Origin: Thermoproteota archaeon
Lineage (GTDB): Archaea; Korarchaeota; Korarchaeia; Korarchaeales; Korarchaeaceae
DNA: 11,406 nt
Direction of reading: 5' to 3'
Assembly: GCA_027491395.1 (NCBI GenBank)
Contig: JAOZFI010000057.1
Coordinates: forward strand, 1-11,406
Shown: in pieces, positions 1 to 11,406 of the stretch
Layout of the letters: each line of letters opens with the position of its first letter
Position numbering within the stretch: position 1 is the first letter of the stretch
The notes under the pieces: generated by a model
What the model was told of the DNA's origin: nothing
What the model saw: the letters and a program-made list of their open reading frames with translations, nothing else
Database searches by the model: none
Made by a program: the position numbers and the translations under genes

Positions 1-312
1 TACGAGGTGTTGAAAAAGGTCGCACTACCCCTCTATCAATCCCTAGGGTATGGACTTGCCGAAGTGAATAAGAGAGGCGAGGACATAGTTGTTAGAAAGT
101 ACGAAAGCATAGAATGCACCTCTCTCAAGGAAGTGCTGGAGGAGAATCCTGATCTAGTAGGGAGCAGTGAGGATGTGGGGTGCAGCATGGTGAGGGGTAT
201 AATAGAGGGCGCGGTGTCGGTGATCATGGGGTTAGAGTACGAGTCTCGTGAGGAGAAGTGCATCGCTAGGGGGGATGATCACTGTGAGCTGGTCCTCACA
301 CCTCGACGATAG
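1..312 (+). CDS. V4R (4-vinyl reductase) domain protein, 5' truncated by the window edge
   Basis: The frame is open from base 1 (TAC GAG GTG TTG...), so the true start is probably upstream. The translation has the V4R pattern GYGLAE...SIEC...CSMVRGIIEGAVS...ESREEKCIARGDDHCELVL. Stop TAG at 310-312. Confidence 0.88.
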   Translation, partial: YEVLKKVALPLYQSLGYGLAEVNKRGEDIVVRKYESIECTSLKEVLEENPDLVGSSEDVGCSMVRGIIEGAVSVIMGLEYESREEKCIARGDDHCELVLTPRR

Positions 313-423: not shown

Positions 424-1449
424 ATGGCCGTAAAGGACGAGGGATCGGACCGAGGGAGAAACGCTCTCAAGGGAAGACTGATGAACCTAATACTTTCGGG
501 GGACCTCCAAGAACTCGTTCCGGTTTTCGATCCCGATGAGGGCTTCACCTACTGCCCCGTGCTTAGGGAGATGGGGATTCGAGATTGCGAGGGGTTGGAT
601 GATGTCCTGAGAGAGTTGACGAGAAAAGGCATCCTGAGGGCAGAGCTTCACGATAATATCGCTGTGTGCGGGAGGTGCGGTTCTCACAGGCTCATCATCA
701 GGCCTGTCTGTCCTTACTGCGGGTCGATCAACTTCAACAAGACTACGGTCATAGAGCATCTCGCCTGTGGCTATTCGGGTCCGGAGACGGACTTCAAGAC
801 CCCCAGCGGAGAGATGGTCTGTCCTAAATGCGGGAAGACGCTCAGGGCTATTGGGGTGGATTACCTCAGGATCGCCGACATCTATCTGTGCTCTGACTGC
901 GGCGAGTTCTTCTCCCTGCCCGAGCTCAAGTTCGTGTGTGCCAATTGCGGTAGGGAGAACTCCATTAAGGACCTGAGAATCGCGAGGGCGTACCGCTACA
1001 GGGTCGTCCCGGAGAGGATAAGATCTCTGGAGGAGGCGTCCTTCCTCAACGAGATGGCTGACAGGTTACTCGAACTCGGCATAACGGTAGATGGTCCGGG
1101 AGCCAAGGTGAAGGGCGTCTCGGGCATAGAGCAAGTTTTTACTTTCGTGATAAGGTCCCCAGACGAGCCGATACCTGTGGCGGTGATAGATATCGTTCCT
1201 CCCGGGAAGCAGCTGAGGGAAGAGGATCTGCTGAGGTTCTTCGCGAAGGCATTCGACGCCAACGCCAAGTACTGGATACTCGCGATCCCGTCCCCTTTGG
1301 ATGAGAGGTTGAGGGACGTTGCTCGTAGGTATGGAATTACGCTGGTTGAATCCTCAGAGCATGGGGATCTGGTCGAGAGATTGATCCGAATGCTGAGAGA
1401 GCTCATAGCTGGGGAGAGGCTCTTGGAGAAGGACCACGGTACCCCATGA
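424..1449 (+). CDS. TackOD1-like (Thaumarchaeal output domain) multi-zinc-ribbon protein with a C-terminal degenerate Mrr/restriction-endonuclease-like domain
   Basis: N-terminal PVFDPDEGFTY..L...LRELTRKGIL segment, then six metal-ligand pairs: C82GRC, C96PYC, H112LAC, C133PKC, C156SDC, C172ANC. The CPKCGKTLRAIGVDY motif is typical of TackOD1. Residues ~205-325 (LLELGITV...VKGVSGIEQVFTFVI...VAVIDI...RFFAKAFD...ARRYGITLVE) follow the Mrr-cat-like pattern. Confidence 0.8.
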   Translation: MAVKDEGSDRGRNALKGRLMNLILSGDLQELVPVFDPDEGFTYCPVLREMGIRDCEGLDDVLRELTRKGILRAELHDNIAVCGRCGSHRLIIRPVCPYCGSINFNKTTVIEHLACGYSGPETDFKTPSGEMVCPKCGKTLRAIGVDYLRIADIYLCSDCGEFFSLPELKFVCANCGRENSIKDLRIARAYRYRVVPERIRSLEEASFLNEMADRLLELGITVDGPGAKVKGVSGIEQVFTFVIRSPDEPIPVAVIDIVPPGKQLREEDLLRFFAKAFDANAKYWILAIPSPLDERLRDVARRYGITLVESSEHGDLVERLIRMLRELIAGERLLEKDHGTP

Positions 1450-4333: not shown

Positions 4334-6766
4334 CTAGGGGGTCAGAGCGTACTCCACCACCAGCCTCACGTCCGTTCCTAAAGCGTGCCTCACCGTCTCC
4401 TCAGCAGCCCTCACCACCGCCGGGGTCATGACCGGTCCCTGTTTGAACCTCGCCTCGCTCACATATATCCTAGCTCTAAGCACCCACTCCGCCCCTCTAG
4501 AGGTCAGGGAAACGTTAACATCCTCCGGCAGCACGCCAGCATAGGAGGCGATTATCTCCTTCACCACCTTCATCACGTTGCCCGTTGAGAGTGTCTCGGC
4601 GGCCCTCATCGACTCGAACGCCGCGGCACTGTGGATCATGAGGGTGAGGAAGGTGAAGATCATGAAGGCGTAGAGGGCGATCCTCTTCCTCCTCTCCCAG
4701 AGGAATCTGTTCGAATAAACGGTGACGAACGCCATGACGAGGAGCGTGTATCCGGCGCTGACGTGGGTGAACCTGTTGATTCCCAGGATGTAACCGGACG
4801 TGAGCCAGAAGAGGAAAGCGTAGCCGAGGACCCTAGCCCTGCTCCTCCAGCTACCGGTCTCCCGGGCCCTCACCGCCTCTAGGGTCGTCAGTCTGAGGAA
4901 GGCTGCCGAGGCAATGAGGGCGAGGAAGAAAACCACGTTGGGAGTTAGCAGGCTGAGGGGGAGGATCGAGGCGACGAAAGCGATAACGCCAAGGAGGGAA
5001 TCATGAGCGATCGAGAAGAGGCCGGAGGCGTTGGTAGAGATCACAGCACCAAACAGCCAGCTCAGGACTATCGGGAGGAGAACGAAGGCCACTTTCCTGC
5101 CTATGGCTTTCAGGGCCTCCCCGGGGGACTTGGTCCCAAGCAGGCCGACCGACACCTTCACCCAGAGGGAGAGGAACCACACGACCGCCACTATGAAGGA
5201 ACCCACTGCCCTCAAAAGGACCTCGGCGCTCGTCCTGGCAACTCTTCCAGACATCTCACTGAAGGACTCCATGAACTCATGGAGAACGCGATCTATCACT
5301 GGGTATATGGCGTAGAACTTAGCCGAGATGTAGCCAGCAGCTATCAGGGCGATCACGTTCACAGCTACCAATGTGGCAGAGCCGACGAATAGTGAGGGGT
5401 TGAGCATCGCCAAAGACACTCCCACAGCGGCAGCCGGTGGTACTAGAGCTATGGCTATGGCAGAACCGACCAGAGCAGCCTCGGCTCTCTCGTGCATCAT
5501 GGCAACGGATCCAGCGAACCCTGCAGCCAAGGCTATGGCCAGATCAACTAGATTGGGACTTCCCCTGGCAGCTAGCTCCCTCGTGATTTGGAGGGGAACG
5601 TAGGAACCAGCGAGGGCGGAAGTGACCCAAGAGAGAACAATTACTAGGAAGAGGGCTTCTAACCCTACCTTCAGTCCTGTGTAGAAGAGGTCCAGACCTG
5701 TAACCTCCCCCCTCCTCACATCTATGAGAGCCAACCCCACAGCTCCAGCCACGATGGCCCCCATCAGGGGGGAGAGGAGCATCGAACCAATAATCGCGTA
5801 CACGTTATCCGCCATCAATCCCACTGCAGCCAAGGCGCTGGCCAGAGAAGTCATTATCATCGATTTGGGATCCGAGACCTCCTTAATCTGATCGAAAGCC
5901 CTTCCCAATATTCTGAGGGCCCTCTGATTAGCCTCATTTATCACCTCGCTGCTTTCAGCCTCCTCCATCTCCGACACCAAGTAATAGGTGAGGGTGATGT
6001 AGCCAGTGGTGTAGAGTGGGAAGAGCGCGAGCAGGAGGAGTATGACCCAGAGAGAGGCTGTTACTAGCCTGTACCAGAACTCGACGCTTATACCGGTGGG
6101 CATCTTAAGTGAGGAGTCTATGCTGCTAGACACAGACCAGACAACAAGTTCTAAGCTCCACAGCTTCCTTATTCGTCCGTTCATCTCCTCCATGGTGGAG
6201 GAGATGTTCTCATAGAGCTCCGCGGCCCTGAGGGGATCCCTCCCCTCAACTAGGAGCCTCACGAGCTCGCCGAACTGCTCCGCCATCTCAGCCCTTTCGG
6301 ATAGGAGGATCGAGAGCTCGCTCTCGTTCAGCCTGATCGCCTTCAGCTTATCCAGCTTGTCGTCCAGATCGGCGAGGGACGTTGCCAAGTGAGTGACATC
6401 CCTGAGCGTGGGGATCACGGTCAGGCTAGCGTTCTCGGTCACATTGACGTTGAGGTAGGAGAGGGTTACCCTCACGGGATAAACACCGGGTTTAGAGGGC
6501 GCAGTTAGGGAGAAGTGATGCACCTCCGCCGTACCTGTGGAGACGAAGAATCTCTCCTTTCGGATCGGCGTTCCCTCGTCTATCACTTCCACCTTCACGG
6601 TGTAGTGCGTGCCCTGGGGCAACCCAACGCTCAGAGCGACCGTGACATTTACCAAGCCCGACGGGCCGACAGCCCTAGGTTCCAAGGCAACCTCGATGCC
6701 CGGTACTTGTGCTCCGGCGTGCAGCAGGGTGATGGCTATTAATGCTAGGAGAAGGGCCCTCCTCAT
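4334..6766 (-). CDS. Extended DUF389 (TIGR00341-like) polytopic membrane protein with a signal peptide, an Ig-like segment and a coiled coil
   Basis: Core motifs LAAVGLMADNVYAIIGSMLLSPLMG, RGSPNLVDLAIALAAGFAG and LVGSAIAIALVPPAAAVG. N-terminal MRRALLLALIAITLLHAGA is signal-like, followed by a beta-rich segment ending APSKPGVYPVRVTLSY and a heptad-rich helical stretch. Confidence 0.85.
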   Translation of the reverse strand: MRRALLLALIAITLLHAGAQVPGIEVALEPRAVGPSGLVNVTVALSVGLPQGTHYTVKVEVIDEGTPIRKERFFVSTGTAEVHHFSLTAPSKPGVYPVRVTLSYLNVNVTENASLTVIPTLRDVTHLATSLADLDDKLDKLKAIRLNESELSILLSERAEMAEQFGELVRLLVEGRDPLRAAELYENISSTMEEMNGRIRKLWSLELVVWSVSSSIDSSLKMPTGISVEFWYRLVTASLWVILLLLALFPLYTTGYITLTYYLVSEMEEAESSEVINEANQRALRILGRAFDQIKEVSDPKSMIMTSLASALAAVGLMADNVYAIIGSMLLSPLMGAIVAGAVGLALIDVRRGEVTGLDLFYTGLKVGLEALFLVIVLSWVTSALAGSYVPLQITRELAARGSPNLVDLAIALAAGFAGSVAMMHERAEAALVGSAIAIALVPPAAAVGVSLAMLNPSLFVGSATLVAVNVIALIAAGYISAKFYAIYPVIDRVLHEFMESFSEMSGRVARTSAEVLLRAVGSFIVAVVWFLSLWVKVSVGLLGTKSPGEALKAIGRKVAFVLLPIVLSWLFGAVISTNASGLFSIAHDSLLGVIAFVASILPLSLLTPNVVFFLALIASAAFLRLTTLEAVRARETGSWRSRARVLGYAFLFWLTSGYILGINRFTHVSAGYTLLVMAFVTVYSNRFLWERRKRIALYAFMIFTFLTLMIHSAAAFESMRAAETLSTGNVMKVVKEIIASYAGVLPEDVNVSLTSRGAEWVLRARIYVSEARFKQGPVMTPAVVRAAEETVRHALGTDVRLVVEYALTP

Positions 6767-6798: not shown

Positions 6799-8040
6799 TT
6801 AACGCTTAGCCCTCAGCTTGGGCACGACCAAACTCGCCTCGGGCAGGACTGCCACCTTCCCGCCCACCCTAGCGAGGGCCTCGTCCAACGCCTCCTGCGG
6901 ATTGAAGAAGGGCTTGAATCCTATCCTCTCGAGAACCTCAGGGCTCAAGTCAGTGACCGCGTACACCTCCGCCTTATCCAGAAGCTCCACTATCTTCGCG
7001 GACTTGTGATAGCCGAGCCTGTAATTCTTCCAGACGTATTCCCTGATCTCCTTTCTGCTCCTCCCGGCCAGGAGGTCGTAGAAGTTTCTGGGTCCTATAC
7101 CGTCCCAGCAGGGCGCGACGAGTATGACCACGCCGCCCTCCCTCACCAAGGGCTTGGCGGCCTCCAGCGCCTTGTGGGACTGATAGAGATCTATTCCCAT
7201 CTCTCCAGGGGCTACGGTCACAACTATGTCCGCCTGCTCGGGCAGCTCCACCGAGTACCTGCTCTCCACCTCCTCGACTAGGGAGTAGAAGGAGTCGAAT
7301 ATGTTACCTGACTTGGCGGCCCACGCCCTCCCCTCCCCGGTGATGGCCACATTCAGGGAGAAGATCCTCACTCTCCCCGCTACCTTCCTGACAATCTCCT
7401 CTAAATCTTCGTGCAGTGGGTTTCCTCTGAGTCTCCCAAGGGCCGCTTCGGGAAGGAGTGCCATCTTGTGGTTCGCCTCGACGCATTCATAGGCACACAG
7501 GCCGGGTGCTATGCTCTTCCTCCCACCAGTGTAGCCGGCAAAGTAGTGGGGCTCTATCGAGCCCAAGGTAATTACAAGATCGTTTCTGAAGACTTCCGAG
7601 TTTATCAGGACGGGGGTCCCCCTCGCGGTCCTTCCCAAGTCGGTGAACTCGCTTCCCTTCGAGTCATGGTACGTCGTTACCCTTCTCAGTCTGTCGTAGT
7701 GGTGTCCCAGTATCAGCCCCCTGTACTCCTCCTCGGTGGGTGGCCTGTGTGTCCCGGTGGCGACTATGATCCTCGCGTCCCCCTCCAACCTTGGGAGGAC
7801 GTGGTCCAGCATCTTAGGAGTGGGGGTGAGTCTGGCGGAGTCGTTAACCACTATGAGCACCTTAGAAGCCCTGATCTCCTCCAACCGATCGCTGCTAACT
7901 GGAGAATCCAGTGCCTCCTCCAGCATTTCATCTACATCAACTTGGGGAGGGGCCTTTACACCGTAGACCCCCAGCAGATTCTCATCCGGGATATTGAGGT
8001 GAAGGGGCCTGTCCCCGTAGAGGATCCTCACCTTCCCCAC
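6799..8040 (-). CDS. larA: LarA-family nickel-pincer-dependent 2-hydroxyacid racemase/epimerase
   Basis: Motifs NDSARLTP, ATGTHR, EPHYFAGYTGGRKSIAPG, EANH and DLYQSHKAL match the conserved LarA Asp/Arg pair, two catalytic His, the cofactor-binding Lys, the Ni-ligand His and YQxxK. The GTG start overlaps the upstream gene by 13 nt. Substrate is not established. Confidence 0.93.
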   Translation of the reverse strand: MGKVRILYGDRPLHLNIPDENLLGVYGVKAPPQVDVDEMLEEALDSPVSSDRLEEIRASKVLIVVNDSARLTPTPKMLDHVLPRLEGDARIIVATGTHRPPTEEEYRGLILGHHYDRLRRVTTYHDSKGSEFTDLGRTARGTPVLINSEVFRNDLVITLGSIEPHYFAGYTGGRKSIAPGLCAYECVEANHKMALLPEAALGRLRGNPLHEDLEEIVRKVAGRVRIFSLNVAITGEGRAWAAKSGNIFDSFYSLVEEVESRYSVELPEQADIVVTVAPGEMGIDLYQSHKALEAAKPLVREGGVVILVAPCWDGIGPRNFYDLLAGRSRKEIREYVWKNYRLGYHKSAKIVELLDKAEVYAVTDLSPEVLERIGFKPFFNPQEALDEALARVGGKVAVLPEASLVVPKLRAKR

Positions 8041-9236
8041 AGGATCACCCCCAGAGCGAGGGAAATTATCACAGATAGAATGGAGGCAGGCACCAAGTAC
8101 TTGTAGACGCCCGAGTACCTCCCACCGTAGTGTTCCAGTGTAAGTATTAGACAGAGGTGCACTGGGGAGAGCATGACCCCTATGTAGCCCCCCGTATACC
8201 CCACCAGAAGTGCCAAGTCATTTATCGCTTTACCCGTCCCCAGCACATTTATCAGGAGGGGAAAAGCTGTTCCCGCGAACACGAACTCCCCGGCGGTAGT
8301 GGCGCCTATGACGAAGGGGAGGGTGAAAACTACGGGCATTATTGGAATACCGTGGGAGACCATGAAATTCAGGAGAGCATCGGCTGAATGGCTGTCGAAC
8401 ACGTACTGCCTGTACATCATCACGGCCACTATCACCAAGAGGATCTTGGGCGAGAGGGCGAACTTCACGCCTTCCACCAGCTTCTCCTTGGAGGGCCTCG
8501 CGTATGCTGCGGTCGCTGAGGCGGTGATCAGGAGGGCGAACTCCACCGGGAGCCTCACCACGAAGACTAGGATCACGACGAGGAGGAAGGGCCATCCTGC
8601 CACTATCAGTTTCCACCTGCTGCCAACTCTCTCCTCACAGCTCCTAGCTCTCCTCCTCAGTAATGGGTAGGAGATTATTAAGCCCGCCCCTATCGTCCCG
8701 ATCGCTGCGGGAAAGGTTGATTCTATTATCCTGACTATCGGCGTGTTTAGTATGACTGCGGTGAGTATGAGGGCCTGGAACAGGGGCCAGACGGGCACCC
8801 ATATGTGCCTGAACCAGTAGTTCAGAAAGGAGGCGAAGTCACTATCCAGCCCCTGCCTCTCCAAGTAGTGCTCCTTTAGCATCATGGCCGAAACCAAGGC
8901 GCCGCCGGGCATGGGAATGAGACCTACCAGCGATGGGACGAATATGGAGGCGAAGTTGCAGCTCAGGCTGGCGAATAGCCGGGTCATCTTATCGAGGATG
9001 CCAGCCACCTTCATCATGTAAGAGAGGAACAGGGCCGAGAAGAAGGCTATAAACAGCTTCAGAGTGGAGTAGGTGAAGATCCCCCTGACAGTGGAATCTG
9101 CCATCCCTGCCCCCAAGGTGAGCAGGCCGAACACCAAGGTGGAGGCCATTATCGCAATGTGAACCTCAAGCTTCCTAATCAGAAGTCCCACGAGTATAGC
9201 CACCGATATAGCGAAACTCAGTACGGGATCTATCAT
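8028..9236 (-). CDS. DUF401 family (TIGR00529-like) membrane protein, putative transporter
   Basis: About 11-12 hydrophobic segments with GLIPMPGGALVSA, NYWFRHIW and MLSPVHLCL. ATG 9236 (MIDPVLSF) is preferred over 9299 because GGAGGCGGGGAAGG precedes it and a TTTTAA box lies about 30 nt upstream. Confidence 0.88.
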   Translation of the reverse strand: MIDPVLSFAISVAILVGLLIRKLEVHIAIMASTLVFGLLTLGAGMADSTVRGIFTYSTLKLFIAFFSALFLSYMMKVAGILDKMTRLFASLSCNFASIFVPSLVGLIPMPGGALVSAMMLKEHYLERQGLDSDFASFLNYWFRHIWVPVWPLFQALILTAVILNTPIVRIIESTFPAAIGTIGAGLIISYPLLRRRARSCEERVGSRWKLIVAGWPFLLVVILVFVVRLPVEFALLITASATAAYARPSKEKLVEGVKFALSPKILLVIVAVMMYRQYVFDSHSADALLNFMVSHGIPIMPVVFTLPFVIGATTAGEFVFAGTAFPLLINVLGTGKAINDLALLVGYTGGYIGVMLSPVHLCLILTLEHYGGRYSGVYKYLVPASILSVIISLALGVILWGR

Positions 9237-9264
9237 CGGCCTTCCCCGCCTCCAGATACCCTTT

Positions 9265-9272
9265 CTTAAAAT
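9265..9272 (-). promoter_or_regulatory. Putative TATA box for the DUF401-larA operon
   Basis: The minus strand reads ATTTTAAG about 30 nt upstream of ATG 9236. Confidence 0.45.
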
Positions 9273-9444
9273 CGTTGACTTGCTGACGTCTTCACCCATA
9301 GGCCCTGTCGACGGTGCAGCTGTTTCGTCGGAGGGATACGGATGCAGGTCCTAAAGCTTATCCGATCTTTCTAAGCACTCCAATCCCGGGAATACCTTTG
9401 TATGATCCGGTTGTCCTGAGGATGTCTTCTTAGAAATCCAGGCA

Positions 9445-9560
9445 ACATTAGGAAAATTAATTACGATTTAACAGTAGCTTCGGTTCACGGGCATACACGT
9501 AAAAAATTTGTTTGTAAAAAGAAAAACTAATTAGACGTAATTACACCCGTCCTTTTTGCC
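9445..9560. promoter_or_regulatory. AT-rich divergent regulatory region with three TAATTA palindromes and A-tracts
   Basis: TAATTA at 9458-9463, 9528-9533 and 9538-9543. A-tracts at 9501-9506, 9516-9520 and 9522-9526. This is visibly the most AT-rich stretch of the window. Confidence 0.5.
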
Positions 9561-9582
9561 ATTTGCGCGTATGACATCCAAG

Positions 9583-9590
9583 TTTATTAG
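9583..9590 (+). promoter_or_regulatory. Putative TATA box for the Csx1-like gene (leaderless or short leader)
   Basis: TTTATTAG about 21-28 nt before ATG 9611, with no RBS in between. Confidence 0.5.
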
Positions 9591-9610
9591 TAATCGACCC
9601 TCAATCCGGT

Positions 9611-11143
9611 ATGATGGAAAACCCCTCTTTAATAGTATACGTATACAGGGGAGGGCAAAAGTGGTCAAGGTTCCACACTGCCAGGGGAATAGTTGAGACT
9701 TCGATTCCCTTCATAGCTGACGTGGTCAGCCTCCTCGGCTCCCCTAGGGTCAAGGTCCTCGTGTTCGTTCCCCACTGCATCGCAAAATTGAGGGAGCTCA
9801 GGGATCTCGACGGCTTGGTGGAGAGGATCAGAGATGAGATTAGGAACGTGCTGAGAATGAGCAGATTGAACGGAGAACCGATAGATGGGATATTCAAGGA
9901 GAAGTACGGTAGGTCGTTGATGGCCGAAACTCGGGTGGTTCCCTTGGAGTGCACCGGCAGGTGTGAGATCGACGGTGAAGTAGTGGAGTTCCAAGGAGAT
10001 CTGCTATGGATGGCCCTCAGGATCATGCTGTTCTTGGAGGACGAGCTGAGGGACTTGCCATCCGAGAAGCTCCTCCTAGTGGATCTGAGTGGTGGTGGAA
10101 TTTATCACGCTCCGGTTTACGCTGCCTCAAACTTGGTAAGCGCCTCATACCCAGAGGTGTCCATGAGGTACGTTTACTGGGAGGGTTCCCCCACACTGGG
10201 CAGGCCAGAGACAAATGGAAGGATGGTGGTCAGGGGGGCTGAGGAGCTCCTGACCGTGGTGAATCTTCTAGCCGCCCTCTTGAAGGGATGTCCGGGTGAA
10301 CCTATCCATGCACTGCCGGATCTTGTGGACAGGTTGAGGAGAACCGAACTGGGGGAGAGGGCTGCAGTTGGATTACTCTCGATGGTTGGGGTGGTCTGTG
10401 GTCTCAAGCTCCCGATACTGCCCCTAGCACATCTCTCGATCCTTGAATTGATGAGGACGGAGATCCCTTACATTAGGGATCCGTTGGATTTGGAGATGAA
10501 CGTTGAATTGTTTAGGTACGATATCTGGACGGTGAGATACGTTTACCGCTCCTTCGGGACGGAGCTGGATGATCCCTTGGTCGCTCTGATGATCGCCGCT
10601 ACATCATACGCTAAGGAGAGGGTTCGGGAAATGGGGATCGTCCCCTCAATAGAGGAGTTCGAGATCGTGGACAGGCTCACGGGTAAAAAGCTTCGGCTCG
10701 CGGATATGAGTTGGGAGTGGCTGGAACTGATCAGCGATTTCCTCTTGGAGAATGGGGCCCTTACTCAGCTCGCTACGATATGCGTCCACCTAGGTCCACT
10801 GTTGGATATTTGCAGGGAGAACTTGGGCTTTCGCAACTCCACGGGAATGAGGTACGACGAACTATGGAAGCTGTCTAGGGAGGAAGGGATTTCGTTACTT
10901 GCAGATCTGCTCGAGAGGAACGAGATGGCTGAGGACCTCATGGATGAGATGAGGGAAGTGATGAGAGATCCCTCGAAGGTGATGGAGATGAGGGAGATCA
11001 TTGTTTCCTCAGCTGGACTGTCTCTTCCTCTCGTGTACCTTATACACGCCCTCGACAGGGGTGTGGAGTTCCTTTACGTGGTGGACCTTGTCAGGAAGTT
11101 GAGGGGGCCCTCCTCAATTGTTTTCCTGTGCTCCCTCCGATGA
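9611..11143 (+). CDS. Divergent Csx1-like CARF-HEPN protein with degenerate motifs
   Basis: Colinear with archaeal Csx1 as recalled. LIVYVYRGGQKW ~ LVxxWGxPxxW. KVLVFVPHCIA ~ ILILVxDTxA. VVPLECTG...VEFQGDL ~ VxVLPGxG...xFxGxx. LLVDLSGGGIYHAP ~ VYLDLTHGINFMP. MRYVYWEGSP ~ xxxxNSEPYP. The C-terminal MREIIVSSAGLSLPLVYL...VEFLY ~ RNFIAHxGFxxNxVxV...LxFxY. Length is similar. Confidence 0.65.
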   Translation: MMENPSLIVYVYRGGQKWSRFHTARGIVETSIPFIADVVSLLGSPRVKVLVFVPHCIAKLRELRDLDGLVERIRDEIRNVLRMSRLNGEPIDGIFKEKYGRSLMAETRVVPLECTGRCEIDGEVVEFQGDLLWMALRIMLFLEDELRDLPSEKLLLVDLSGGGIYHAPVYAASNLVSASYPEVSMRYVYWEGSPTLGRPETNGRMVVRGAEELLTVVNLLAALLKGCPGEPIHALPDLVDRLRRTELGERAAVGLLSMVGVVCGLKLPILPLAHLSILELMRTEIPYIRDPLDLEMNVELFRYDIWTVRYVYRSFGTELDDPLVALMIAATSYAKERVREMGIVPSIEEFEIVDRLTGKKLRLADMSWEWLELISDFLLENGALTQLATICVHLGPLLDICRENLGFRNSTGMRYDELWKLSREEGISLLADLLERNEMAEDLMDEMREVMRDPSKVMEMREIIVSSAGLSLPLVYLIHALDRGVEFLYVVDLVRKLRGPSSIVFLCSLR

Positions 11144-11406
11144 CCTCCTGAATCTCGCCACCTTGGCCGAGATTATCAGGGCGGCGCTCACCAAGAGCAC
11201 CACGATCCAACCGGGTGGATGGGAGAACCTAAGCGACCTTATCTCCCCTCCCACGCTGTAAACCAAGTTCCCGTCATCCGACCAAGCGTAATGTATCTCC
11301 CTTCCCCTAGCCAGCTCCTCAACTGAATCACCACTCCTGAGAAGGAGGACCTTGGTATCGTTGAACTCCAACCTCACCAATAGCTTCCCATCCCTAGACC
11401 ACTCGA
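11114..11406 (-). CDS. Membrane-anchored protein with beta-propeller-like (WSxDG) repeats, 5' truncated by the window edge
   Basis: The frame stays open to the window end and reads EWSRDGKLLVRL...YAWSDDGNLVYS (two TolB/PD40-like WSxDG motifs). A C-terminal hydrophobic helix WIVVLLVSAALIISA and a basic tail KVARFRR follow. The 3' end overlaps the convergent gene by 30 nt. Confidence 0.65.
   Translation of the reverse strand, partial: EWSRDGKLLVRLEFNDTKVLLLRSGDSVEELARGREIHYAWSDDGNLVYSVGGEIRSLRFSHPPGWIVVLLVSAALIISAKVARFRRSSEGAQENN

Follow-up and report, generated by a model that had tools for sequence, protein, structure and literature searches.

We report that an 11,406-nucleotide (nt) stretch of DNA from a korarchaeal Thermoproteota archaeon (contig JAOZFI010000057.1; hereafter the window, meaning this stretch at its full length) carries a Csx1-like gene on its plus strand (positions 9611 to 11143), whose 510-amino-acid (aa) product, P0001, is very probably an inactivated Csx1 homologue kept under selection. 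Csx1 and Csm6 are textbook cyclic oligoadenylate (cOA) effectors, and reviews present them as active RNases linked to type III CRISPR loci. The fuller statement, that the gene is a domesticated, catalytically dead Csx1 derivative whose product acts non-catalytically, is in our judgment probable. The frame is open with a single stop codon at its end, in agreement with the intact 510-aa open reading frame (ORF) claimed in an earlier reading of this DNA made from its letters alone (the sequence-only reading).

P0001 is linked to Csx1 through intermediate sequences

Searched directly, the P0001 sequence matched no family in Pfam, NCBIfam or PADLOC, even at E values of up to 1 to 10, and no PDB chain, and it fell below every curated Csx1 cut-off (Pfam Csx1_CARF, Csx1_HEPN, TIGR01897 and PADLOC Csx1). 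Family profiles A1 and A3 gave chance-level matches only against the PDB (best E values of 0.3 to 2, for proteins such as annexin and ATP synthase delta), and two relatives described below, P0012 and P0010, also failed to reach Csx1 when their sequences were searched against the PDB. Direct family assignment from sequence in Pfam, NCBIfam, PADLOC or the PDB was rejected, as there was no relevant match.

A word-indexed search of 5.8 billion proteins returned eight orthologue clusters at 60 to 100% identity, all of about 509 aa, one of them named as a hypothetical protein of a Candidatus Korarchaeota metagenome-assembled genome. With phmmer, just seven clusters among 1.84 billion representatives were reached at an E value of ≤1e-3, which makes this a small, deep-branching family: the orthologue cluster, P0009 (36% identity), P0010 (E value = 1e-41), P0012 (3e-20), P0013 (2e-17) and two fragments. 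P0010, P0012 and P0013 are full-length and are referred to here as the canonical relatives. All three carry D/E-x-[ST]-H-G-x-N and R-H-x-x-A-H-A-G, and they match the PADLOC Csx1/Csm6 CARF+HEPN model at E values of 4e-19, 4e-17 and 3e-15. P0010 and P0012 also passed the Pfam Csx1_CARF cut-off of 24.7 bits, at 31 bits, with P0013 just under it at 22.9; matches of the canonical relatives to TIGR01897 were weak (31 to 36 bits versus a cut-off of 110), and so was that of P0010 to Pfam Csx1_HEPN (E value = 0.17). A word-indexed search with profile A4 for more canonical members returned P0010 only.

The identity of P0001 to its nearest canonical relatives is 24 to 29%. When we aligned the profile of the eight orthologues with the three canonical relatives (hhalign), the match had a probability of 100 and an E value of 6.5e-41 and extended over 463 columns (residues 26 to 498). 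Furthermore, a language-model search (Atlas, with orthologue P0004 as the query) placed Csx1 CARF/HEPN clusters first (0.93, 217/256 features). These results indicate that the end-to-end colinearity with Csx1 put forward in the sequence-only reading holds indirectly, through intermediates and model matches, because P0001 itself matches no family whereas the profile reaches the canonical relatives.

The CARF pocket is remodelled and both HEPN catalytic residues are replaced

We looked at the sensor and active-site columns in a 15-sequence alignment composed of nine orthologues (including the protein from locus L001), three intermediates (P0009, P0016 from locus L004, and P0017) and the three canonical relatives; the nine orthologues and three intermediates are together called the non-canonical relatives (n = 12). 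The DxTHG motif, which follows strand 4 and lines the cOA pocket, is defined in PMC3973734, PMC9676260 and PMC6754442. PMC6754442 gives Y14, Y19, S51, T154, H155, G156 and N158 as the conserved cOA4 contacts of Sulfolobus islandicus Csx1 (SisCsx1), and in Synechocystis Csx1 the CARF-loop substitutions H117D and R120A are reported to bring activity down to barely measurable (PMC9676260). In P0001, the loop reads D158-L-S160-G161-G162-(one-residue gap)-G163, so that G161 stands for the His and G163 for the Asn, with one deletion. The His and the Asn are replaced in 12/12 non-canonical relatives, so that none of them has an intact DxTHG(xN) motif. The sequence-only reading had DLSGG (aa 158 to 162, nt 10082 to 10096) replacing DxTHG and the CARF signature erased; the loss of the His and Asn stands, but D158, S160 (for Thr) and G162 are kept, so the motif is remodelled.

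The broader signature of the CARF superfamily, [DN]X[ST]XXX[RK] after strand 4, is incomplete as well: D158-x-S160 is present, but I, L, M or P, and never K or R, stands seventh. The polar Ser or Thr expected at the end of strand 1 is also missing, the sequence there being Y-R-G-G. PMC4012209, which defines the signature, describes the RV2818 and RtcR families as mostly lacking the basic residue.

Two further columns changed at the ends of neighbouring strands. Position 56 is Cys in 12/12 non-canonical and Ser in 3/3 canonical relatives; judged by its position, this Ser of the canonical PHS would be the cOA4-contacting S51 of SisCsx1. Position 114 is Cys in 12/12 non-canonical relatives and S, G and S in the three canonical ones. 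P54, H55, E113 and W190 are common to P0001 and the canonical relatives, and His166 is invariant among the nine orthologues. The orthologue P0002 (93% identical) has a deletion and an Arg in the loop, reading DLS-G-R versus DLSGGG in the other eight, so either the Gly-rich loop is not strictly fixed or the record holds an assembly error.

One of the reported substitutions did not survive this comparison. WEGSP had been taken to replace NSEP; at this position the canonical relatives read NWEPP, GWESP and NWEPA, and WEGSP is not a lost motif, because W190 is invariant in all 15 sequences, the canonical ones included. The positions assigned to DLSGG, WEGSP and REIIVSSAGL were all exact.

According to PMC3710099, all four CRISPR-associated HEPN families, Csx1 included, strongly conserve Rx4-6H, and H388A in the RxxxxH of Synechocystis Csx1 is described as affecting activity (PMC9676260). 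In P0001, E462 (nt 10994 to 10996) occupies the canonical Arg column, with R461 one position upstream, and S467 (nt 11009 to 11011) occupies the His column, so both catalytic residues are replaced and Rx4-6H is absent. The sequence-only reading had noted the missing catalytic His, correctly, but the canonical Arg has gone too. Across the family, an Arg precedes the Arg column by one position, as R461 does, in 7/9 orthologues. The His column holds Ser in five orthologues, His in two, Leu in one and Thr in one, and His, His and Cys in the three intermediates. It is among the 62/510 columns with at least four states in the nine orthologues, and its neighbours S466, A468, G469 and L470 are invariant. 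This drift fits a released former catalytic residue, because the column is variable, its neighbours are invariant, and the Arg and the pocket are lost. The two orthologues that keep the His, P0006 and P0007, read R-E-R-L-I-S-H, that is, R-x5-H, which is formally Rx4-6H. Another histidine, H479, is invariant in the nine orthologues and absent from 2/3 intermediates.

The CARF and Arg losses are shared by the non-canonical relatives, and the gene is under purifying selection

We constructed a quick IQ-TREE phylogeny from the same alignment after removing the motif columns, and the root was assumed to lie on the canonical group. Support by the Shimodaira-Hasegawa-like approximate likelihood ratio test was 100 for the orthologue clade, 97 for the intermediate clade and 100 for both together. 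On this tree, the His of THG changed to Gly once and Ser56 to Cys once, the Arg column changed three times (R; then E or D; Y once), and the His column changed at least five times. All 12 non-canonical relatives have the CARF losses in common and lack the canonical Arg, which answers the question, raised with the sequence-only reading, of whether the substitutions are shared; the His column varies. The CARF pocket and the HEPN Arg would then have been lost once, in the ancestor of the 12 non-canonical relatives, leaving the orphaned His free to change.

The ratio of nonsynonymous to synonymous divergence (dN/dS, Nei-Gojobori) of the window gene was 0.19 versus L001, 0.09 versus L002 and 0.14 versus L003, at dS values of 0.26, 1.55 and 1.72, respectively. 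By region, dN/dS was 0.09 to 0.15 in the N-terminal part and 0.07 to 0.18 in the middle. In addition, 203/510 positions are invariant across the nine orthologues, and the frame is intact in 9/9 orthologues and 3/3 intermediates. The low dN/dS and the invariant positions indicate that the gene is maintained and not decaying, and purifying selection of this strength (0.09 to 0.19) is what the proposal of selection for a new role predicts. Orthologues at 60 to 93% identity and a dN/dS this low also make the observation more than chance.

The predicted fold and dimer resemble those of Csx1

A model built with AlphaFold2 (AF2) from the eight close orthologues was poor, with a predicted local distance difference test (pLDDT) score of 51; in a Foldseek search of the PDB it had Csx1 on top at an E value of ~2e-3 and no matches at ≤1e-3. 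With a 12-row alignment that included distant relatives, pLDDT rose to 88.1, with a predicted template modelling (TM) score of 0.88. Foldseek matched the latter model to 11 PDB entries at an E value of ≤1e-3, and 11/11 are Csx1/Csm6, so the Csx1-type fold expected from the sequence-only reading was found. Pyrococcus furiosus Csx1 (4eog) had an E value of 3.6e-7 and TM-scores of 0.46/0.50. The best TM-scores (0.47 to 0.48 by query, 0.53 to 0.55 by target) were those of the cA4-binding Csm6 entries 6o6x, 6o6z, 6o6s and 6o6t. The matches also include Sulfolobus solfataricus 2i71, called Csx1 in PMC3710099, and S. islandicus Csx1 6qzt.

The N-terminal Rossmann-like domain is identified as CARF by the AF2 model, Foldseek, hhalign and the Pfam matches of P0010 and P0012. 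Csx1 architecture is described as CARF-HTH-HEPN, with a helix-turn-helix (HTH) between the two end domains (PMC9704534), and the middle region of P0001 lies at that position. At the C terminus, the model has a helix at 454 to 466 that holds the former motif, followed by a beta-hairpin at 475 to 490 (strands 475 to 480 and 485 to 490). A hairpin straight after the Rx4-6H motif is named as a hallmark of the Csx1 HEPN domain in PMC3710099, and the Foldseek alignments to 4eog and 6o6x run full length; the C-terminal domain is thus of the Csx1 HEPN type.

We also predicted a dimer from two copies of residues 6 to 505 with alignment A3 and three controls. The homodimer score was 0.56 (runs of 0.56, 0.62 and 0.44), and the best control scored 0.00; the mark for this score is reached by 20/30 proteins solved as one-chain pairs and by 1/23 solved single chains. 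The runs share at least 40% of contacts, with a partner pLDDT of at least 78. The predicted interface is symmetric (115 to 117, 159 to 170, 187 to 193, 222 to 229, 266 to 268, 384 to 392 and 461 to 466) and takes in residues 159, 161 to 164, 166 to 167 and 170 in the former THG loop and at the start of the next helix, where 166:166' and 163:163' are in contact. As modelled, this is the dimer arrangement of Csx1 given in PMC6754442 and PMC9704534, in which the sensor loops and the motif helices meet along the two-fold axis. The touching Gly-rich loops could mean that the pocket is closed. Because Csx1/Csm6 dimers have already been solved, the dimer score may reflect likeness to them and not pairing by P0001 itself.

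The gene occupies a fixed place away from cas genes in the DNA examined

Accessory proteins such as Csx1 are described as normally not encoded outside cas cassettes (PMC3973734). Neither cas genes nor CRISPR arrays were found in the window, in the 10 kb that flank the gene to either side in L001 (21.5 kb examined), or in the stretches seen of L002, L003 and L004; in these stretches, the gene thus lies neither inside nor beside a type III cas cassette. This upholds the absence of cas genes and repeat arrays reported for the window and extends it to a further 10 kb downstream in L001. A CRISPR array was rejected, as the repeats found are coding only.

A scan of genome contigs with the protein matched 38 stretches, four of which encode relatives. 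Where the contig reaches, neighbours are shared: a DUF401 gene lies upstream in the window, L001 and L002, a convergent gene for a ~294-aa protein adjoins the Csx1-like gene in the window, L001, L002 and L003, and a metallo-beta-lactamase/rhodanese gene lies beyond the convergent gene in L002 and L003. The Csx1-like protein of the window is 90, 78 and 67% identical to those of L001, L002 and L003, respectively, compared with 94 and 94% for DUF401 (window versus L001 and L002) and 86, 78 and 80% for the convergent neighbour among L001, L002 and L003; it has thus changed somewhat faster than the neighbouring proteins. In 4/4 orthologue loci, the gene keeps a stable, syntenic place amid metabolic and transport genes. 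Because this neighbourhood is shared, we read the gene as vertically inherited in a fixed place in four related archaeal genomes.

Searches of phage and plasmid collections (tblastn) yielded no copy of the gene, and a fold search of BFVD gave no match at an E value of ≤1e-3. A viral or plasmid decoy was rejected on these grounds.

What P0001 may do, and the alternatives

P0001 would no longer be a cOA4-activated RNase, because it has lost the residues implicated by mutagenesis and structures in cOA4 contact and in RNA cleavage. Its mode of action would be non-catalytic, that of a dimer with a binding or regulatory role, in which the HEPN-derived half would bind RNA without cutting it and the remodelled CARF face would either take a ligand other than cOA4 or simply hold the dimer together. 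In our view, such a binding or regulatory mode is somewhat favoured.

A bolder proposal, drawn by analogy and in our view doubtful, is that the Csx1 scaffold was recruited in this archaeal lineage as a vertically inherited housekeeping sensor, its remodelled CARF domain reading a non-cOA signal and its dead HEPN domain holding RNA. The CARF face would have been rebuilt in one step, with two Ser-to-Cys changes where the adjacent strands 2 and 3 end, a Gly-rich loop for THGxN and the His166 that all nine orthologues share, and the signal might be, for instance, redox state sensed via the Cys56-Cys114 pair or another phosphorylated nucleotide. The protein would then be an archaeal counterpart of the bacterial RtcR, derived from a complete CARF-HEPN effector.

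Several points weigh against a dead, non-catalytic Csx1 derivative. P0001 matches nothing directly in Pfam, NCBIfam, PADLOC or the PDB, and its homology is transitive and structural. The TM-scores are moderate (0.46 to 0.55) at a root mean square deviation of ~10 Å; we attribute this to domain orientation, but these values remain a limit on the structural evidence. The good AF2 model depends on the three canonical rows in its alignment, since the eight-orthologue model reached a pLDDT of only 51. The tree has an assumed root, and the three canonical rows sit on long branches. The C-terminal 70 residues have a higher dN/dS (0.12 to 0.40). With D158, S160 and G162 persisting, some nucleotide binding may have been retained, and some family members may still cut RNA, given the R-x5-H of P0006 and P0007. 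Conservation of the pocket-face loops does not exceed that of the remainder of the CARF domain (16/35 versus 67/159 invariant positions, Fisher P value = 0.71); these loops give no positive sign of a new ligand site, and a specially constrained new pocket was rejected. Moreover, the gene is unlinked to type III genes within 21.5 kb, which does not establish independence from a type III system elsewhere, because Csx1 acts in trans through a diffusible messenger.

This last point bears on the possibility that P0001 acts on a type III signalling pathway whose genes lie in another part of the genome, either by serving as a cOA sponge or buffer or as a dead partner in mixed dimers that damps an active Csx1, which we consider unlikely. 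Such a role would suit the predicted Csx1 dimer architecture, with the former motif loops on the axis, and the D, S and G retained in the CARF motif; action in trans, as described for Csx1 in PMC9704534, makes genomic linkage unnecessary, and in L004 the more distant relative is surrounded by toxin-antitoxin and restriction-like genes, a defence-like setting. However, the cOA4 contacts listed in PMC6754442 have for the most part given way to other residues (the His, the Asn, and the Ser that is now Cys), and mixed dimers are unlikely because identity to the nearest canonical relatives is so low (24 to 29%). Also against a modulator are the stable synteny with metabolic and transport genes, kept in 4/4 orthologue loci, and the lack of an active csx1 or cas10 in the 21.5 kb examined.

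That P0001 is still an RNase, cOA-activated or not, working through non-canonical residues, is distinctly improbable. Candidate residues do exist in R461, in the His of P0006 and P0007 and in the invariant H479, and HEPN families with variant motifs are described in PMC3710099. P0001 itself, though, has Ser in the His column and Glu in the Arg column, the His column is among the most variable in the family, unlike a catalytic residue, and H479 is lost in 2/3 intermediates; going by these residues, an alternative active site in P0001 itself is unlikely.

A young pseudogene or neutrally drifting remnant of a lost CRISPR module would account for two degraded motifs and for the absence of nearby cas genes, but it is hardly credible for a frame intact in nine orthologues and three intermediates, with a conserved promoter block, 203/510 invariant positions, and dN/dS values (0.09 to 0.19 at dS of 0.26 to 1.72) that contradict the neutral decay named in the sequence-only reading as its refutation. 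Equally implausible is a generic Rossmann-plus-helical likeness unrelated to Csx1, which can draw on the missing direct profile matches and the moderate TM-scores and is opposed by the phmmer matches to Csx1-model relatives (E values of 1e-41, 3e-20 and 2e-17 among 1.84 billion representatives), the hhalign match (probability of 100 over 463 columns), the 11/11 significant PDB matches to Csx1/Csm6 and motif columns that align in register.

Features of the gene, its promoter and its surroundings

Table 1. Coordinates of the Csx1-like gene, its parts and the convergent gene (window positions unless a locus is given)
Feature	Position	Strand	Basis or remark
Coding sequence, Csx1-like protein P0001	9611..11143	+	ORF; orthologues; dN/dS
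Promoter element, 14-nt block ATCCAAGTTTATTA holding TATA-like TTTATTA (9583-9589)	9576..9589	+	Invariant in 3/3 loci
N-terminal CARF-like Rossmann domain, aa 1-190	9611..10180	+	AF2 alternating strands and helices, pLDDT 81-97; Foldseek; hhalign
P54-H55-C56, end of strand 2	9770..9778	+	Canonical PHS; Ser to Cys
E113-C114, end of strand 3	9947..9952	+	Canonical ES or EG
Remodelled DxTHGxN loop D158-L-S-G-G-G-I-Y-H-A-P168, on predicted dimer axis	10082..10114	+	hhalign; alignment columns
W190-E-G-S-P (aa 190-194), after strand 5	10178..10192	+	W190 invariant in 15/15 relatives
Middle helical/beta region, aa 210-440, at Csx1 HTH/insert position	10238..10930	+	Model secondary structure; canonical relatives align over its whole length
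C-terminal HEPN-derived domain, aa 441-510	10931..11140	+	Model; Foldseek
Former HEPN active-site stretch REIIVSSAGL, aa 461-470	10991..11020	+	hhalign; columns; change counts
Convergent gene, 3' part, ~294-aa protein	11114..11404	-	Overlaps Csx1-like gene by 30 nt; in 4/4 loci
Convergent gene copies	L001:11504-12388; L002:2515-3393; L003:1514-2416	-	Full-length

The first ATG of the Csx1-like gene (9611) is missing from L002 and most orthologues, and translation may therefore begin at the second one (9614). Upstream, the block ATCCAAGTTTATTA is identical in 3/3 loci having upstream DNA (window, L001 and L002), versus 72% identity for the whole upstream spacer across the same loci, and the TATA-like box of its own that had been noted for this gene proved to lie within it. 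This block lies 25 to 28 nt ahead of the start codon. In archaea, the TATA box usually lies ~26 nt from the transcription start; this spacing suggests a leaderless or near-leaderless mRNA.

A 310-nt spacer (9300 to 9610) separates the Csx1-like gene from the divergent DUF401 gene. It holds long blocks that are invariant in the three loci, such as an A/T-rich one at ~9499 to 9527 and TTCGGTTCAC at ~9480, which are distant from both start codons. These blocks could be the DUF401 promoter with a long leader, or a small RNA. A structured RNA in the conserved spacer was rejected, given that there was no Rfam match in the window at an E value of ≤1 and that the three-sequence consensus fold on the minus strand was weak (-11.9 kcal/mol).

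The convergent gene is a conserved neighbour with no evident tie in function to the Csx1-like gene. For its ~294-aa product, Pfam and PADLOC gave no family at threshold, and the only leads are a WD40-type match under the threshold and Atlas beta-propeller matches below 0.9.

In L004 (1 to 8480), the neighbours of a 33%-identical relative (P0016) include an AAA_14/DUF4143 ATPase, an Eco57I-like methylase, a SocA/Panacea antitoxin-like gene and an MNT-HepT pair. Its setting is defence-island-like, without cas genes, unlike the metabolic setting of the orthologues. P0016 keeps the HEPN His and has Asp in the Arg column.

Elsewhere in the window, a LarA-like (lactate racemase family) gene (6799 to 8040, minus strand) and the DUF401 gene (8028 to 9299, minus strand) overlap by 13 nt, which suggests one operon. 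An 810-aa DUF389-domain protein is encoded at 4334 to 6766 (minus strand), with three imperfect 28-nt direct repeats at 5363 to 5552 spaced by 78 to 84 nt; the same repeats occur in L001 and point to an internal protein repeat of ~26 to 28 residues. A V4R-domain protein (1 to 312, plus strand) is cut at the window edge and is followed by a gene (424 to 1449, plus strand) for a Thaumarchaeal output domain, TackOD1, with double zinc ribbons; these two may form a signalling pair. Farther along L001, a PD-(D/E)XK_10 nuclease-family protein with a DUF3782 coiled-coil (L001:12867-13523, plus strand) contains five 21-nt tandem units (12986 to 13121), and a PIN-domain gene lies nearby (L001:14926-15387, minus strand).

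Meaning and comparison with known systems

The family offers a naturally occurring case of a defence effector that has become a pseudoenzyme, with the whole scaffold under purifying selection and the sensor and catalytic residues lost. Its members form an ordered series, from canonical, to pocket and Arg lost, to His drifting, which can be used to ask which CARF-HEPN parts matter beyond catalysis. Should the remodelled pocket bind a new ligand, the range of signals read by CARF domains would be wider; should it only dimerise, the family would extend the known set of inactivated Cas-derived proteins modestly. In the titles, abstracts and passages covered by our literature searches, including work on Korarchaeota Csx1 and on inactivated HEPN domains (the latter on Cas13), we found no description of such a family; the 2020 CARF census (PMC7498327) or its supplements, or those of the 2025 Crf1-11 classification, might list it.

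P0001 resembles Csx1 in size and in the order of its parts, namely, a CARF domain, a middle region and a HEPN-derived domain with a hairpin after the motif, as described in PMC3710099 and PMC9704534; a symmetric dimer through the CARF loops and motif helix is predicted for it, and the homology runs via intermediates. Unlike Csx1, it has neither the His and Asn of DxTHGxN nor the Arg and His of Rx4-6H, carries Cys for the Ser after strand 2, falls under every curated Csx1 model and has no cas genes in the 21.5 kb examined. Among solved structures, its model aligns over its full length, with the best TM-scores, to the Csm6 crystals with cA4 (6o6s, 6o6t, 6o6x and 6o6z), named ToCsm6 in PMC6754442. 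As described there, however, the ToCsm6 CARF domain binds and cleaves cA4 and its HEPN His cuts RNA, and in P0001 the counterparts of these residues are replaced.

RtcR offers a second parallel, a divergent CARF domain outside CRISPR that has left cOA signalling and serves a housekeeping regulator, in its family mostly without the basic residue after strand 4 (PMC4012209, PMC7790460 and PMC9650030). RtcR differs in being a bacterial AAA+/HTH transcription activator without a HEPN domain, and it is likened to P0001 by description only. A third parallel is found in motif-less HEPN domains such as that of Swt1. Although these belong to other HEPN families, they too have lost the catalytic motif and retained the domain, and Anantharaman et al. 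inferred them to be non-catalytic nucleic-acid binders (PMC3710099).

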